Below, piece after piece: positions 1 to 25,005 of a stretch of 64,000 nucleotides of DNA. The notes under the pieces are model-generated. The model saw only the letters and a program-made list of their open reading frames with translations, had not been told where the DNA came from and made no database searches. The stretch is from an uncultured Selenomonadales bacterium (GTDB lineage: Bacteria; Bacillota; Negativicutes; Selenomonadales; Selenomonadaceae). The stretch covers positions 78,950-142,949 of the forward strand of contig CAMZAX010000001.1 of assembly GCA_947304355.1 (NCBI GenBank), read 5' to 3'. Position numbers and translations under genes: made by a program. Position 1 is the first letter of the stretch; every line of letters starts with the position of its first letter.

Positions 1-41
1 ATTATAAACAAAAAACGCCGCGCTGTCTATAGAAATGAGCG

Positions 42-69
42 AAAAGCCCCGCCGACAGACGGAGCTTTT
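42..69 (-). terminator. Imperfect A/T-flanked hairpin downstream of ORF 112..459
   Basis: AAAAGC-CCG ... CGG-GCTTTT pairing (6 bp, a mismatch, then 3 bp) with an 8-nt loop. The A-run and T-run could act on either strand. Confidence 0.35.
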
Positions 70-111
70 ATTTATTTCGATATGGCAAAATTTACGAGCC
101 GATGATTTCCG

Positions 112-459
112 TTAATCCTGACCAAGAATTTCGGTGTTGTCGTCCATGATGACATCCTTAAACGGAACGCCGTCGATAAAGCAATCGTTCAGCAGGTCGT
201 GAATGTTTTCGTAGCAACCGATTACTTCAAAATCGTCGGCGGCGGGATAGCCTCGCGATTCGCAGTGCATGACGTAGACGTAATAAAATCGGGACTCGCC
301 GTCGTTTTCAGGCGGCTCGTAGCACATGCGATAATAGACGCCGCGATATAAAAATTCAATGCCCATGAACTTGCGCGGCTGAGTGTCCGTGGAGGGGTAG
401 CGACCTCTGTCGTATTCGTAAATAAATTCGTACAAGCAGTTGTATTCGTTGATTCTCAT
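112..459 (-). CDS. Hypothetical small acidic protein; candidate immunity partner of 456..839
   Basis: 115-aa ORF with a 4-nt overlap with the upstream ORF. Asp/Glu/Tyr-rich; no motif recognised. Confidence 0.5.
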   Translation of the reverse strand: MRINEYNCLYEFIYEYDRGRYPSTDTQPRKFMGIEFLYRGVYYRMCYEPPENDGESRFYYVYVMHCESRGYPAADDFEVIGCYENIHDLLNDCFIDGVPFKDVIMDDNTEILGQD

Positions 460-839
460 CGTAATCCGAACCTTTCTTTAATCTCATTAACCAAAGCCTG
501 TTCTTTTTCAGAAATGGAAATTCCGTTATCAGCATGATTCAAGTAAATGTGTTTGTGTGGCTGAACTCCGCGATGTTTGTGTTGTAAATCAACGACCACC
601 GCCTGCTTATGATTTTCATCGTAATAGGCGAGATGTTTTAATTCGCCGCCTTGAACAATGGCGTAAATCCTGTTAGCCGTATGCGAATATTCCGGAGCTT
701 TGACGGAGCCGCTGTCTCTGACTAAAATCTTGACGTTGTCAAACCCGCCTATGGAGCGAAAAGTTTTTCCGCCGTCCGTAAAAGAAAAATCACCGGCATG
801 TACATTTTTAAAAGAACTTCTGTTGCCCATGGCACTCAC
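456..839 (-). CDS. Hypothetical small basic His-rich protein; candidate free-standing toxin domain
   Basis: 127-aa ORF overlapping both neighbours by 4 nt. Contains the motif LAYYDENHKQAVVVDLQHKHRGVQPHKHIY. No signal peptide or delivery domain. Confidence 0.5.
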   Translation of the reverse strand: MSAMGNRSSFKNVHAGDFSFTDGGKTFRSIGGFDNVKILVRDSGSVKAPEYSHTANRIYAIVQGGELKHLAYYDENHKQAVVVDLQHKHRGVQPHKHIYLNHADNGISISEKEQALVNEIKERFGLR

Positions 840-1522
840 CTCCTTTCAAAAATTGGTGAAACCTCGAAAAGTGTTCCTTGAGAACAAGGATGCTTTTTAG
901 GTCGAAAAGACTCTTCATAACGAAAATTTACGAACCGTCCCTTCATTTCCGGCAAGATGTCACCGTAAACGACAACCAAAGGCGGCTCAATGCGGCGAAT
1001 CATTTCATTGTAGCCTCGCATAAAAAATGCTGTATCTCTCTTACTGCCGAGGGTGGAAATCACGACAATCGTTCCTTTTTCCAGACCGGCAAAGCTCAAA
1101 TCATCCCAACCCTCCGTTGTCCAACCGACACTTGGCAAAGACAAAATGCCATGCTCTTGCCAAAAACAACCAAGCCAACGATTTTTATAAATCTGATTAA
1201 GATACGACGGTATATCCATTTGAGGATGGAGACTATAATCGGGGGTCGCAACAGCGTAAGCGGATTGCAAGCACGGGATATATTTTAACGGCTTTTTGCA
1301 AAAACGCTCGATTTTATCGTCGTAGGAAAATCCCAAAACAAATTTGCGCGTGTTGTTGTTCTTGACGGACAGATTTTGAAGGTTCAATGGTTGAACGTTG
1401 GAAAAATTCAGATCGTCTTCCGTGACTTTGTTCATTATCGGAATATGAAATTGATCGCGATTATGATGATTAAGAAGCGGACGTATTAATCCAAAAAGTT
1501 TTTCCTCTGAAAGCCCTTGCAT
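836..1522 (-). CDS. DUF4417-family protein
   Basis: Block AVATPDYSL...YKNRWLG...VGW aligns without gaps with the second copy at 2464..3139. ATG at 1522 has GGAGG 8 nt upstream (the ORF track starts at TTG 1537). Confidence 0.65.
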   Translation of the reverse strand: MQGLSEEKLFGLIRPLLNHHNRDQFHIPIMNKVTEDDLNFSNVQPLNLQNLSVKNNNTRKFVLGFSYDDKIERFCKKPLKYIPCLQSAYAVATPDYSLHPQMDIPSYLNQIYKNRWLGCFWQEHGILSLPSVGWTTEGWDDLSFAGLEKGTIVVISTLGSKRDTAFFMRGYNEMIRRIEPPLVVVYGDILPEMKGRFVNFRYEESFRPKKHPCSQGTLFEVSPIFERR

Positions 1523-1890
1523 TATATAATCCTCCAATCAATGATTCCAAATTTCTATCAATGCGAAAATCTTAAATTATCGTCGATTCTACATCATGAA
1601 ATTTTTATTGTCAAATAGTTAATAAGGCAGGTATGTTTTCGTTATATATGCACAAGTCAAACGGAAAAAGCCCCGCCGACAATCAAGTATCTGTCCGTCG
1701 AAAATGAATTCTGTTTCGGCGTTGTAATACAAATCATCTATAAATTGGCGCAAGGGCTTACCTTTCACAAAACCACCCCCTTTAAGAACTTACGATATAT
1801 TGACAAAGATTTAAATTCATAATAAATTGCCAACGACAAATAGACTTCAAATATGACACAAACATACAACGAAATTTAGGAGGTGATTTC

Positions 1891-2295
1891 ATGCTTGAAG
1901 GTTTCGTAAAAATACCTGTTTTATCGGGAAGTTCATTCATGTCTGTCACAAGAAACGGAATAAATTTCAGCGGCAACGTCGTGTTTCATTTACAGAGAGC
2001 AGAATTTGTACTTTTCTTTCTAAACTCCAATGAAAAACAAATCGCGATACAAAAATGCGATGATACCGACGAAGACAGAGTCCCTTTTTTTCGCGAAGGA
2101 GCAAATTGGAAGAACGGCGTGCGCGTCAACAACCGTGAGTTGCAACAAATAATTTCTCGAATGATGGATTGGGATTTGGAAAGTTACAACTATCGTGCAG
2201 ACGGAATTTATTCCGATAAAGACAACGCAATGATTTTCGATTTAAAAACCGCGAGAAAGTTCAATAAACGGCGCAAAGAACAATCAAAAAGATGA
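1891..2295 (+). CDS. Hypothetical protein (134 aa) between the two cassettes; possible regulator
   Basis: Strong RBS (TAGGAGGTG) 7 nt before the ATG and a terminator hairpin downstream. No family recognised. Confidence 0.55.
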   Translation: MLEGFVKIPVLSGSSFMSVTRNGINFSGNVVFHLQRAEFVLFFLNSNEKQIAIQKCDDTDEDRVPFFREGANWKNGVRVNNRELQQIISRMMDWDLESYNYRADGIYSDKDNAMIFDLKTARKFNKRRKEQSKR

Positions 2296-2318
2296 CTTCC
2301 GACACGCCGTAAACAAAA

Positions 2319-2356
2319 ATTCGGTTGCCGCTGTCAACAGTAACCGAATCCTTTTT
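2319..2356 (+). terminator. Rho-independent terminator
   Basis: ATTCGGTT (2319..2326) pairs with AACCGAAT (2342..2349), followed by CCTTTTTG. Confidence 0.6.
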
Positions 2357-2463
2357 GCGAAATGTGCTGATGTACACATAATCTTTATTCTTTTATTGTC
2401 GTATGTTAGCATATTTCGCTCCGCAGGTCAAAATTTCTTTTAACTTGTAAGGAGTGATTTATT

Positions 2464-3139
2464 TTGCGTAAAAACACATTCGACGAAGAATTTAACTTGG
2501 AATTGGTGGAGACTGCTCTCTTTGACGGAGTATTGGAGATTCCTAAAATCGATCCGCCTGAAGAAATTATTATTCCGCCGAACATGATTCCCTATTCCAA
2601 ACGCGACCGAAGCAAAGATTTTTTCCGAATGCCTAGTTTTCTACGAACACGATATTAACTTTGCCGACATTGTTCGCAAGCCGGAAGATTTTGTCGATGA
2701 CATACTGCGCTTTTCCGCTGTCGTAACGCCCGACAACTCGCTTTATCGCGACGCGCCGTTACTCGCGCAAATAGCAAACGTATATCGCAACAGGGCTATC
2801 GGTCATTCTCTCCAAAAGCAAGGCGCATACGTCATTACAAATGTCCGTTGGGGTGACGAGCGCAGTTATACAACAGATGTTCTGCCGGAAAAATTTGCTT
2901 TCTTGGGCGCACCGAAAAACTCTGTCGTCTCCGTCGGTACATACGGTTGCGTTCAGAGCAAAGAAAATAAGTATTACTTCCGCGAAGGTCTGGAAGCCAT
3001 GCTCGATGAACTGACGCCTGAGGTCGTTTTGGTTTACGGAAGTATGCCCAAAAAGATTTTTTCCGCCGACATCCTTAGCAAGACAAATTTCGTTCTTTAT
3101 CCCGATTGGATTTCACAAGTCAGAAAGAAGGTCAAATAA
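2464..3139 (+). pseudogene. DUF4417-family gene interrupted by a +1 frameshift in a T6 run
   Basis: ORF 2464..2658 plus the frame open from 2588 to 3139 reconstruct one DUF4417-length protein (AVVTPDNSL...YRNRAIG...VRW). Removing one T from 2619..2624 fuses the two frames. Confidence 0.6.
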
Positions 3140-3631
3140 ATGGGTACAGGTAAAACGGGTCGTTGTTTTAATACACGTGGAAGTGCTCGCTCCGTCAGCG
3201 ATTTTGCACTCGTTCAATCAATCGAGGGTCTTTTTACTCAGCCGATGAGAAGAAGAGATCGTCTTCGTTTAAAAAGCGGCGGTCACGCTCAAAAAGGAAT
3301 GCTCTTGTTTGACAAATACGGCATAGAGTACAATATCGTCAAAACTTATCCGAACGGCGTCCGAGTCGGCAATATTCCGAATCATATAAAGAGATGGAAA
3401 AGAACGGGTAGTAATCAATCGTGGTTTCCTGCAGCGTGGTCGCCGAAAGATATTCGTCGCGCAGGCGAACTCGTTGCCGGACTGAAAAACAATCGTCACG
3501 TTCCGGACGGAAAAATCGTCTACGGCATGTATAAGGGTGTCAGAGTCGGAATCATACGTACAAACGGGAAGATAGCAACGGTTTTTCCCGACTCTAATCA
3601 ACCCACAAAAAAACGGAGGTCAAAAAAATGA
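3140..3631 (+). CDS. Free-standing EndoU-like RNase toxin domain protein
   Basis: SGGH...NGVRVGNIPNH...KRTGSNQSWFPAAWSPKDIRRAG resembles the bacterial EndoU (PF14436) GGH / FP.xWS pattern as I recall it. ATG directly follows the upstream TAA. Confidence 0.55.
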   Translation: MGTGKTGRCFNTRGSARSVSDFALVQSIEGLFTQPMRRRDRLRLKSGGHAQKGMLLFDKYGIEYNIVKTYPNGVRVGNIPNHIKRWKRTGSNQSWFPAAWSPKDIRRAGELVAGLKNNRHVPDGKIVYGMYKGVRVGIIRTNGKIATVFPDSNQPTKKRRSKK

Positions 3632-3966
3632 ACATTGAAGAATTAAAAGCTGTCGTTGCCGAGCGTAAACGTGTTGCTGTTGAAACTCAAGACGAATGGG
3701 ACTACGGTATCGAACAATGTTGGAAAAAAACTACCGAAATTCTTACACGTGACATTGCGCAGACGATTAACTTTATCGAAAATGAATGCGACGATGATAC
3801 TTTCTGTTGGATTGGCGAAGTTTTCGACGACGTAGCCGAGATTACTCAAAGTAAGGAATTCGTTGCTGCAATTAAACGACGCGCCGCAAAAGTCGTTGAC
3901 GCGCAACAACGTCGCCTTGTCGAAGTTGATGTTCGTTACGCCAGATACAAAATTGACGACGAATAA
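3628..3966 (+). CDS. Hypothetical acidic protein; candidate cognate immunity protein
   Basis: 112-aa ORF with an ATGA overlap with the toxin gene. Acidic and helical-looking. Confidence 0.5.
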   Translation: MNIEELKAVVAERKRVAVETQDEWDYGIEQCWKKTTEILTRDIAQTINFIENECDDDTFCWIGEVFDDVAEITQSKEFVAAIKRRAAKVVDAQQRRLVEVDVRYARYKIDDE

Positions 3967-4163
3967 ATTCCCATATACGCCCACAGAGAAAGAATCCAAA
4001 AATATCGCAAGCTGAATTCAAAAAGCCCCACGGCAAGTATCAGGGGTTGTTGCGTTGCGCTTTACAATATCGGCGCGTCATAAAAATTTTCATCAAGCCC
4101 GTTGCAGAAATCATCTGCGCGGGTTATTTTTTATGCGTATTTTGTTTTAGGAGTTGATTCAAC

Positions 4164-24764: not shown

Positions 24765-25005
24765 GAAGAAGGACAACATCTGGGAGGTACGAGGACTCAA
24801 TTAATGTCTAACCTACATTAATTTTAGGGAACCTGAATTGATTTCGGAAGATGGAGAATTGTCCGCGCGGCAAGTAACAGACACCGAGCTTAAGGAACCC
24901 ACCTGCGAGTAAGCAGGTTTAGACATTTGGAGGAACCGGCATTTTGGATCCCTTTTTCAGGAGAGATTGCTGATTGTCAATCGGCAGTCTCTTCTTGCTT
25001 TTGCG
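24765..25005 (+). ncRNA. Candidate structured leader or small RNA, class unknown
   Basis: Local hairpins AATTAATG/CATTAATT (24799..24823) and ACCTGC-GAGTAA-GCAGGT (24901..24918), three GGAACC boxes, and a 13-bp terminator-like hairpin at 24963..24991 followed by TTCTTGCTTTTG. Confidence 0.3.

Follow-up and report, generated by a model that had tools for sequence, protein, structure and literature searches.

Among the polymorphic toxins described so far, MuF toxins carry a conserved phage-associated N-terminal domain followed by a variable toxin and a small immunity open reading frame (ORF), occur in short toxin-less as well as toxin-bearing forms, and are encoded in or next to the DNA-packaging module of phages (PMC3482391, PMC5576092), with 96% of bacterial muf genes located in prophages or their remnants (PMC5576092). 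The S8-PTS, a polymorphic toxin system with an S8 peptidase, has three components: an enzyme-like gene that is conserved, a polymorphic toxin whose N-terminal part is conserved and whose heads include many BECR RNases, and the immunity gene that matches the toxin (Li, Tan and Zhang 2022, PMC9424270). In the CdiA-CT/CdiI and Rhs systems, a short motif (VENN, PxxxxDPxGL) is both the boundary between constant and variable regions and the recombination breakpoint, and displaced modules leave orphan immunity genes behind. LXG toxins of the type VIIb secretion system (T7SSb) are accompanied by small conserved upstream genes (Lap/DUF3130 helpers) thought to bind the N-terminal region of the toxin, and in CapH/CapP abortive-infection (Abi) operons and type II toxin–antitoxin (TA) systems, a toxin is paired with a neutraliser without export machinery. 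Each of these systems has features in common with two gene cassettes found at the left end (112..3966) of a 64,000-nucleotide (nt) stretch of contig CAMZAX010000001.1 from an uncultured Selenomonadales bacterium, hereafter called the window, in which all positions of the cassettes are given. Both cassettes are headed by a gene of the DUF4417 family (PF14386). A first-pass annotation, made from the sequence alone, knew of no functional description of DUF4417, and none was found in the literature, which holds incidental mentions and one 2025 preprint reporting that ParB–DUF4417 fusions are enriched in prophages; the available text of the 2012 polymorphic-toxin survey (PMC3482391) and of the MuF paper (PMC5576092) does not mention the domain. 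Here, relatives of the cassettes show that DUF4417 heads a large, apparently undescribed polymorphic-toxin family present in gut bacteria, phages, and conjugative elements.

The cassettes are divergent, with cassette A on the minus strand and cassette B on the plus strand, and each comprises a DUF4417 gene, a basic gene, and an acidic gene in that order. The lead gene of cassette A, A1 (836..1522, minus strand), encodes 228 amino acids (aa) and matches PF14386 with 114.6 bits (E 4.8e-33), while B1 (2464..3139, plus strand), the frame of which is disrupted, matches with 155.7 bits (E 1.2e-45) when repaired to 224 aa by deleting one T from a run of six, both passing the gathering cutoff of 28.9 bits. 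The two are paralogs with 26% identity (BLASTP E 3e-15), including the gap-free block AV.TPD.SL...Y.NR..G...Q..G......V.W. The second genes encode the basic proteins A2 (456..830, minus strand; 124 aa) and B2 (3140..3631, plus strand; 163 aa), with isoelectric points (pI) of 9.2 and 11.3, and the third genes the acidic immunity candidates A3 (112..459, minus strand; 115 aa, pI 4.3) and B3 (3628..3966, plus strand; 112 aa, pI 4.6). By its match to EndoU_bacteria (PF14436; 56.9 bits, E 3.6e-15, profile positions 20–129 of 129, cutoff 25.3 bits), B2 is a predicted bacterial EndoU-family RNase toxin. Pairwise comparison detected no significant similarity between A2 and B2, nor between A3 and B3. 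In all these respects, from the shared block and the frameshift to the basic and acidic products, the EndoU signature, and the unrelatedness of the two downstream pairs, the first-pass annotation was borne out, and both Pfam families that it expected were matched. It had also described the genes as translationally coupled, and the junction sequences are indeed present (GTGA at 836..839, ATGA at 456..459, TAAATG at 3137..3142, and ATGA at 3628..3631), but for A2 the ATG at 830, 5 nt past the A1 stop, is a likelier start than the GTG at 839, which would extend the protein to 127 aa and give the proposed 4-nt overlap. The ATG is preceded by AGGAGG 8 nt before, and the product then begins MGNRSSFKN.

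To place the cassettes among their relatives, the B-type DUF4417 alignment was scanned over one genome per species, a mixed alignment of the A and B subtypes being too divergent for locus scanning, and this gave 259 relatives, from which 80 loci were kept and their neighbouring ORFs called and clustered. The 80 loci belong mostly to rumen and gut Clostridia, Selenomonadales, Lentisphaerae, and others, and about 69 of them consist of DUF4417, a toxin, and a cognate immunity gene. In approximately 54, a second gene that starts with an MG leader is tightly coupled to DUF4417 (gap -34 to 0) and followed by a third gene, and in about 15, all from Lachnospiraceae, the order is permuted to toxin–immunity–DUF4417; five loci are cut at contig ends. 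In the permuted loci (L060, L063, L064, L075, L078–L085, and L089), the genes directly upstream of DUF4417 are those for an EndoU toxin, which has the leader MGTTKSGRVLNTHG, and for its immunity protein, and the immunity gene abuts DUF4417. The second genes fall into at least nine mutually unrelated clusters, including EndoU, Ntox50 (E 4e-28), DUF6883 (E 8e-14), and a weak PBECR1 match, and the remaining clusters have no Pfam match. Toxin and partner clusters pair one-to-one, as in the case of DUF6883 with DUF4926. B2 is a member of toxin cluster 1 (20 members), which the B3 family (cluster 0) constantly accompanies, permuted loci included, and the A3 family (cluster 6) always follows A2-like toxins (L002–L008, L095, and L097). 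All ten A-type loci carry A2-like toxins, and the metagenome scan with the A subtype gave only three loci. The toxin/immunity pairs are therefore hypervariable across the 80 loci and DUF4417 conserved, a clear positive outcome of the test that the first-pass annotation had proposed.

The manner in which the pairs are exchanged is visible at the DNA level. Loci L045 and L046 encode DUF4417 proteins that are 98.6% identical, followed by unrelated toxins, and their DNA is 99% identical through the upstream genes and DUF4417, with the similarity ending 20 nt into the toxin gene. Across locus pairs, DNA homology breaks off between 19 and 46 nt into the toxin gene and picks up again just past the toxin/immunity pair. 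L046 has retained the DUF4926 gene of a displaced DUF6883 toxin, and similar orphan immunity genes are found in L012, L035, L038, and L073; DUF4926 and EndoU-immunity genes are among the orphans. Sharp breakpoints of this kind, together with orphaned immunity genes, are the mark that recombination leaves on polymorphic-toxin loci. In addition, L011, L072, L077, and L085 contain two or three DUF4417 genes in a span of 10 kb, with a separate toxin for each, and in L077 three lie in tandem, so multi-cassette loci mirror the two cassettes of the window.

Nearly all second genes start with MGxGxSGxYxNTKG[SA], a 16-residue leader, and diverge thereafter. The strict pattern occurs in 48 of the 763 ORFs starting with MG in the DNA examined, and 47 of these 48 lie directly after a DUF4417 gene. 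For 1,000 pairs of loci with different toxins, identity is 58% in the leader (first 16 residues) and 64% in DUF4417 compared with 25% in the remainder of the toxin, the level expected by chance in a global alignment. Leader residues G2, G4, and G14 are invariant and S6, G7, Y9, and T12 nearly so, and the conserved positions use all synonymous codons, both Ser codon families included; therefore, it is the leader peptide that is under constraint, and the pattern does not reflect DNA homology alone. A2-like toxins encoded after A-type DUF4417 start with MGNRSSFKNVHAGDF, and A2 itself carries the A-type leader MGNRSSFKNVHAGDFSF (780..830, minus strand). Relatives of A2 encoded after B-type DUF4417 (L011 and L012) start instead with MGTGKSGRCLNTKGS, as do the EndoU toxins of that clade, and thus the leader follows the subtype of DUF4417 and not the toxin. 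The B-type leader of B2, MGTGKTGRCFNTRGSA (3140..3187, plus strand), corresponds to the Gly-rich junction of the fused proteins described below and to the upstream recombination breakpoint. The toxin candidates, which the first-pass annotation had described as free-standing, are thus not entirely so, because they carry this conserved N-terminal leader. As a separate observation, the leader glycines G2, G4, and G7 spell GxGxxG, and in the fused proteins a hydrophobic strand precedes them; this arrangement resembles dinucleotide- or phosphate-binding loops, or it may be no more than a flexible linker. A programmed frameshift or readthrough joining DUF4417 to the toxin was rejected since the junction phases vary (0, -1, -4, -11, and -14), and a PD-(D/E)XK nuclease, a GH25-like muramidase, and mimicry of the L27 tail by the leader were considered and dropped as no evidence for them was found.

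The origin of the leader is suggested by proteins in which DUF4417 and the toxin are joined. Among the A1 homologues (P0001–P0031), P0031 consists of DUF4417 and an AHH nuclease, followed by Imm11, and a search with this protein retrieved a sister clade of 1,562 proteins. The best 120 of the 1,562 are mostly 300–460 aa long with PF14386 at the N-terminus, and their C-terminal regions match AHH, Ntox50, PF15533, PF15535, barnase-type Ribonuclease, or DUF6883, or have no Pfam match. For example, P0206 is a DUF4417–barnase protein followed by Barstar, forming a solitary two-gene insertion among glycoside-hydrolase genes. In the fused proteins, DUF4417 ends with DY(A)xTNN, followed by 21–50 variable residues, a hydrophobic strand (GYVI), the junction, and the toxin. 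The junction motif, G[M/F/R]G[S/G][A/G]GG, aligns with the split leader, and one toxin exists in both forms, fused in P0192 (EKGRGSAGGGNISLPKNASQLKHIF) and split as the cluster 9 toxin (MGAGKSGQYNNAKGSKVSLPSKPAQVKHIF). As fused and split toxins align at the junction, the split leader is the counterpart of the fused-protein junction, and by sequence comparison the cassettes of the window are gene-fission versions of a toxin with a constant N-terminal and a variable C-terminal part. One further protein, P0245 (456 aa), appears to unite DUF4417 with a toxin of the cluster 9 type and an immunity sequence of the cluster 11 type in a single ORF; it may be a fusion of all three or an artefact of assembly or of a frameshift. 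An exhaustive profile search yielded 3,713 DUF4417 representatives at 50% identity with three architectures, that is, stand-alone DUF4417, DUF4417 with a C-terminal extension, and DUF4417 with an N-terminal extension (ParB_N in the one case tested). Three traits of polymorphic toxins sensu Zhang et al. 2012, namely a constant N-terminal part with a variable toxin, a co-varying immunity gene, and cassette replacement leaving orphans, are thus found in the DUF4417 family, and the polymorphic-toxin genetic architecture of the loci is well supported. The suggestion of such a grammar in the first-pass annotation is upheld by the variable pairs behind a conserved DUF4417, the breakpoints and orphans, and the natural fusions accompanied by Imm11 or Barstar.

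On balance, it is probable that these loci encode a carrier-type polymorphic toxin, in which DUF4417 is the constant module and of which the window holds two split members. In the ancestral or fused form, DUF4417 would be followed by a short hydrophobic strand, a Gly-rich junction, and a variable C-terminal toxin, with the immunity gene after it. The gene would then have split exactly at the junction, so that DUF4417 ends and the toxin starts at the junction Met, keeping the junction as its leader. Each operon would be expressed from its own promoter with its genes translationally coupled, and we infer that the leader docks the toxin onto the matching DUF4417, by which the fused protein would be re-formed non-covalently, while the acidic third protein (A3 or B3) would neutralise the toxin in the producer. 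DUF4417 would serve a function common to all cargoes, namely to deploy the toxin outside the producer, most probably together with DNA-transfer machinery (phage heads or conjugation), making it a carrier analogous to MuF. New toxin/immunity pairs could be acquired by recombination between the leader and the sequence downstream of the pair. The fusions, the match of the leader to the DUF4417 subtype, and the translational coupling all argue that DUF4417 works with the toxin as a single unit. A role as carrier in toxin deployment is favoured because DUF4417 holds the constant position, immunity genes are left as orphans, and the family is placed in phages and conjugative elements.

In phages, DUF4417 is present in 491 records and corresponds to phrog_940 (ParB and DUF4417, labelled 'nuclease') and phrog_8680. 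In the Streptococcus phages A25 and SA01, DUF4417 is the second-to-last gene before terS, and an A2-like protein overlaps it by 4 nt with no third gene. Roseburia phage Jekyll encodes DUF4417, two small genes starting with VVVNLQFFGGRGGSSG and MGGRGASSG, and then TerL. In mycobacteriophage Trixie, DUF4417 is gp1 at the genome end, followed by an ADP-ribosyltransferase (ART) starting with VGGGGGGAGSGGSS and an acidic protein of 101 aa, and in mycobacteriophage Crossroads (L094, 2309..3357), DUF4417 is gp120, followed by the Gly-leader protein gp121 (MGGRGGGGGGPVSS) within an array of 12 tRNA genes. Likewise, a fused toxin with a 163-aa partner is encoded beside the coupling-protein genes of a type IV secretion system (T4SS) in a conjugative element, and the A-type triad of L007 adjoins prophage head genes. 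In Jekyll, it was also observed that a 90-aa ORF after DUF4417 (L091, 3166..3438) starts with VVVNLQFF directly followed by GGRGGSSG. The NLQFF stretch resembles what we take to be the Prp-cleaved site of ribosomal protein L27 and of the capsid and scaffold proteins of phage 80alpha. The host protease Prp cuts between F and A (PMC5744158), and a similar cleavage of the Jekyll ORF would expose a Gly-rich N-terminus like the other leaders, in this single case.

The similarity to MuF toxins thus extends from the overlapping toxin repertoire (Ntox24, Ntox50, BECR RNases, and ARTs) to the occurrence of short and toxin-bearing forms and the position near packaging genes, yet there are clear differences. 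The window proteins have no MuF domain (Phage_Mu_F/SPP1 gp7) in Pfam, DUF4417 is alpha/beta and enzyme-like, and a split toxin with a conserved leader has not been described for MuF. Furthermore, most of the sampled DUF4417 triads are solitary islets without portal or terminase, the island of the window is about 4 kb within the chromosome, and a location at packaging genes is seen only for distant phage homologues and the L007 prophage.

Several observations weigh against a role of DUF4417 as toxin carrier. Scans with both the A and B subtypes did not detect either of them in IMG/VR viral contigs, and neither a secretion signal nor a transmembrane segment nor an export apparatus dedicated to the toxins was seen near the bacterial loci. 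As to a delivery route, no signal peptide or secretion genes lie nearby, and the association with phage packaging and T4SS is circumstantial. The flanks of the loci contain mostly housekeeping, restriction–modification (R-M), Fic, and XRE and Peptidase_M78 (M78) genes and not phage morphogenesis genes, with no portal or terminase among the top families of the 80-locus flanks; integrases and transposases are also present. The phage relatives of A2 have no downstream immunity gene, and A2 is a toxin candidate only by its position, a sub-threshold Ntox24 match, and conserved histidines. Moreover, B1 is frameshifted in this genome, and the invariant polar residues of DUF4417 (D68, S97, Q122, W134, and Y186) look like those of an enzyme or ligand site and not of a passive carrier.

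The neighbourhoods of the bacterial loci are one reason to consider an intracellular Abi or TA defence system, in which DUF4417 would sense phage or DNA damage and release or activate a tethered toxin, with the third protein as antitoxin and effector swapping driven by phage counter-defence. In about 24 of the 80 loci (for example, L019, L026, L027, L038, L040, L045, L046, L051, L072, and L073), the position immediately upstream of DUF4417 is taken by an XRE helix-turn-helix (HTH) gene and a Peptidase_M78 (ImmA/IrrE/CapP-like) gene, which usually share its strand, and in 13 other loci a Fic/DOC gene is found there instead. Pairs of XRE and M78 are the ImmR/ImmA switches of mobile elements. They are also known, as CapH/CapP, as regulators of immune operons (PMC13228613; 10.1101/2022.04.27.489752), and their presence points to expression under the control of stress or DNA damage. 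The L002 locus is itself a defence island, in which GmrSD, MmeI, GIY-YIG, and a dynamin-like gene are found, and type I R-M and AbiEii genes are located near some loci. Together with the solitary modules lacking export machinery, the enzyme-like residue conservation of DUF4417, and the persistence of the triad despite permuted gene order, these settings keep the Abi/TA explanation alive. However, none of the seven proteins matched a defence-system model in PADLOC-DB v2 at E <= 0.1, and the window cassettes are without the regulator pair that is found in approximately 30% of related loci. The order of toxin then immunity gene, the immunity families Imm11 and Barstar, and the intact orphan immunity genes are typical of intercellular, polymorphic toxins, and in a virulent phage, DUF4417 and an A2-like gene are kept directly in front of terS without an antitoxin. 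An Abi or TA system is accordingly considered possible, though rather unlikely. As the first-pass annotation had left it open whether DUF4417 serves in delivery, activation, sensing, or an Abi/TA-type module, the evidence narrows the choice, albeit only partly.

The structure and conservation of DUF4417 bear on what the domain itself may do. The AlphaFold2 (AF2) model of A1, built from 58 sequences, is confident (pLDDT 83.5, pTM 0.82) and shows alternating beta and alpha elements with the conserved residues at strand ends. Across split, fused, ParB-fused, and phage members, P28, D68, P94, S97, Q122, W134, F144, G146, G159, G170, P180, and Y186 are invariant and R115 is nearly so, which argues for one biochemical function shared by all these contexts. 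It could be speculated that DUF4417 is an enzyme that processes or modifies the Gly-rich junction, either a peptidase freeing the toxin in cis or trans or a transferase whose target would be a Gly, Ser, or Tyr at the N-terminus of the leader. Its analogues would be the peptidases that release other polymorphic toxins and, in S8-PTS, the S8 peptidase. Such an activity would be compatible with carrier-type deployment as well as with defence. The D, S, R, Q, W, and Y residues invariant at the strand ends of the alpha/beta fold, the conserved junction immediately after the domain in fused forms, and the precedent of a three-component system of enzyme, toxin, and immunity protein (PMC9424270) speak in its favour, as does the notion that a mature N-terminus would start with Gly, with one phage ORF carrying a Gly run after the L27/Prp-like NLQFF. 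Still, DUF4417 has no peptidase or transferase similarity by sequence or fold and no invariant His or Cys, and split forms keep the domain although a release step would be needless, so a processing enzyme appears unlikely.

A Foldseek search of the PDB with the DUF4417 model gave nothing below E 0.001, the best match having E 0.03 and a TM score of at most 0.37 with a weakly TIM-barrel-like fold, and a profile search of PDB sequences was empty. In the viral models of BFVD, the best matches beyond the family are phage queuine tRNA-ribosyltransferases (TGT), which are weak (E 0.016, query TM score 0.40), and no TGT was present among the top 50 PDB matches; the resemblance to TGT/DpdA is taken as a lead only and not as a fold assignment for DUF4417. 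These matches, and the ParB–DUF4417 fusions in phages, could be read as signs of a phage-derived nucleic-acid enzyme that is adjacent to toxins by chance, its 3' end being an insertion hotspot or the pairs being addiction modules of the islets. This is highly improbable, as DUF4417 is fused in frame to many toxin domains, the leader is under protein-level selection and tracks the DUF4417 subtype, the triad persists under permuted gene order, and the fold hint is itself weak. A different role connected with DNA is that of an enzyme or nucleic-acid-binding module that would couple effectors with a Gly leader to DNA in transit or to a DNA-translocating vertex, either covalently via the exposed N-terminal glycine or non-covalently. 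Although we regard this coupling as quite unlikely, if true, a universal carrier would deliver interchangeable toxins along with DNA through phage heads and conjugative T4SS, and chromosomal islets would load toxins into any departing phage or element.

Compared with the remaining described systems, the DUF4417 cassettes stand apart in their constant components. The toxins of S8-PTS have a signal peptide and BetaH and their partner is a subtilase, whereas the cassette proteins showed no such match and the DUF4417 partner can be fused to the toxin. In contrast to CdiA and Rhs, the constant regions and delivery routes of which (secretion systems of types V and VI) are entirely different, the boundary motif of DUF4417 toxins is Gly-rich and GxGxxG-like, and the gene can be split at the motif. 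Unlike the LXG toxins with their helpers, no LXG/WXG domain and no T7SS genes were seen, and DUF4417 is an enzyme-like protein of ~225 aa, not a small helical chaperone, spanning monoderm and diderm phyla as well as phages. What is new is therefore the constant domain, the junction motif, the fused/split duality, and the lack of a known delivery route, while polymorphic toxins as such are a known kind.

The second protein of cassette A, A2, has a conserved DLxHxH..PHxH motif and matches phrog_9479 (E 2.4e-15), whereas its match to Ntox24 (PF15529; 14.2 bits, E 0.055) lies under the 24-bit gathering cutoff. Its single-sequence AF2 model is all-beta with a C-terminal helix at low confidence (pLDDT 60), and its compatibility with Ntox24 is limited to the conserved His and the all-beta character of the prediction. 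A profile search against the PDB with A2 gave nothing, and Foldseek matches of the model were meaningless. Neither A3 nor B3 matched a Pfam family, and look-ups of the exact products of A1 and A3 returned no match.

Apart from the two triads, which are present as described in the first-pass annotation, the region between the cassettes holds two further elements that had been passed over. The first, at 1619..1768 (minus strand), is a truncated immunity-like remnant of cluster 8, comprising 49 of ~92 aa (translation VKGKPLRQFIDDLYYNAETEFIF). It matches a 92-aa gene found in fourth position in L002–L005 and in third position in L011/L012, and as its full-length relative is the gene after A2-like toxins elsewhere, the remnant looks like a decayed orphan immunity module of an earlier cassette. 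The second is ORF134 (1891..2295, plus strand), encoding a basic protein of 134 aa without a Pfam match and with a weak match to phrog_1799. In phmmer searches, relatives of ORF134 were found directly upstream of DUF4417 of both subtypes (L001, L007/8, L011, L012, L013, and L097), and this conservation is confined to Selenomonadales-type loci. ORF134 may thus be a lineage-specific regulator, an accessory gene, or a fourth component. Promoter-like sites, each by consensus match only, are located upstream of A1 (TTGACA-17-TAGAAT at 1586..1614, minus strand) and upstream of ORF134 and cassette B (1800..1828, plus strand). Terminator-like hairpins, likewise by consensus match, follow A3 (GC-rich, 38..53, minus strand) and cassette B (4103..4119, plus strand), the latter at the boundary where GC content rises (~4100) and the island gives way to the chromosome. 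Positions 1..4100 form a low-GC island with 35–46% GC compared with 52–60% in the rest of the window, adjoining chromosomal genes for rubrerythrin-like and metallo-beta-lactamase (MBL)-fold proteins. The remainder of the window is ordinary-looking chromosome with no tRNA genes, and its sole Rfam match, 6S (SsrS) RNA at 24774..24954 (plus strand), is barely above the gathering score with 46.7 bits.

The disruption of B1 is due to one additional T in a T6 tract at 2618..2623, where intact relatives, which are 223–225 aa long, have T5. The same B cassette, frameshift included, is present in the Logan assembly of SRR20324751 (contig L001), and as this may or may not be the sample of the window, B1 could be a true pseudogene or the extra T an error of assembly. 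Unless the T6 run is a sequencing error or a slippage-prone tract, cassette B is probably inactive in this genome. Similar breaks were observed elsewhere, as a B1 relative with 75% identity (L028) has an independent additional T in a neighbouring T6 tract, ~15 nt downstream of the equivalent site, and L057 is likewise split. These breaks could reflect sequencing errors in homopolymers, repeated inactivation, or tracts that are prone to slippage.

These findings would provide a first functional context for DUF4417, including its members in cluster A mycobacteriophages, Streptococcus phages, and gut and rumen bacteria, and would add to the polymorphic toxins a class of constant domain that has no recognisable secretion route and is either fused to or split from the toxin at a Gly-rich junction. 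The split form is a natural experiment, in which a 16-residue leader appears to be enough to tie arbitrary toxins to DUF4417. Recognition and delivery thereby become directly testable, and the leader could possibly be reused as a tag. In addition, uncharacterised toxin and immunity families abound among the C-terminal regions and partner genes. Finally, whether the toxins act in interbacterial killing, phage infection, or anti-phage defence is a question that the DUF4417 family shares with MuF toxins, and A25 and Trixie are tractable phages for addressing it.

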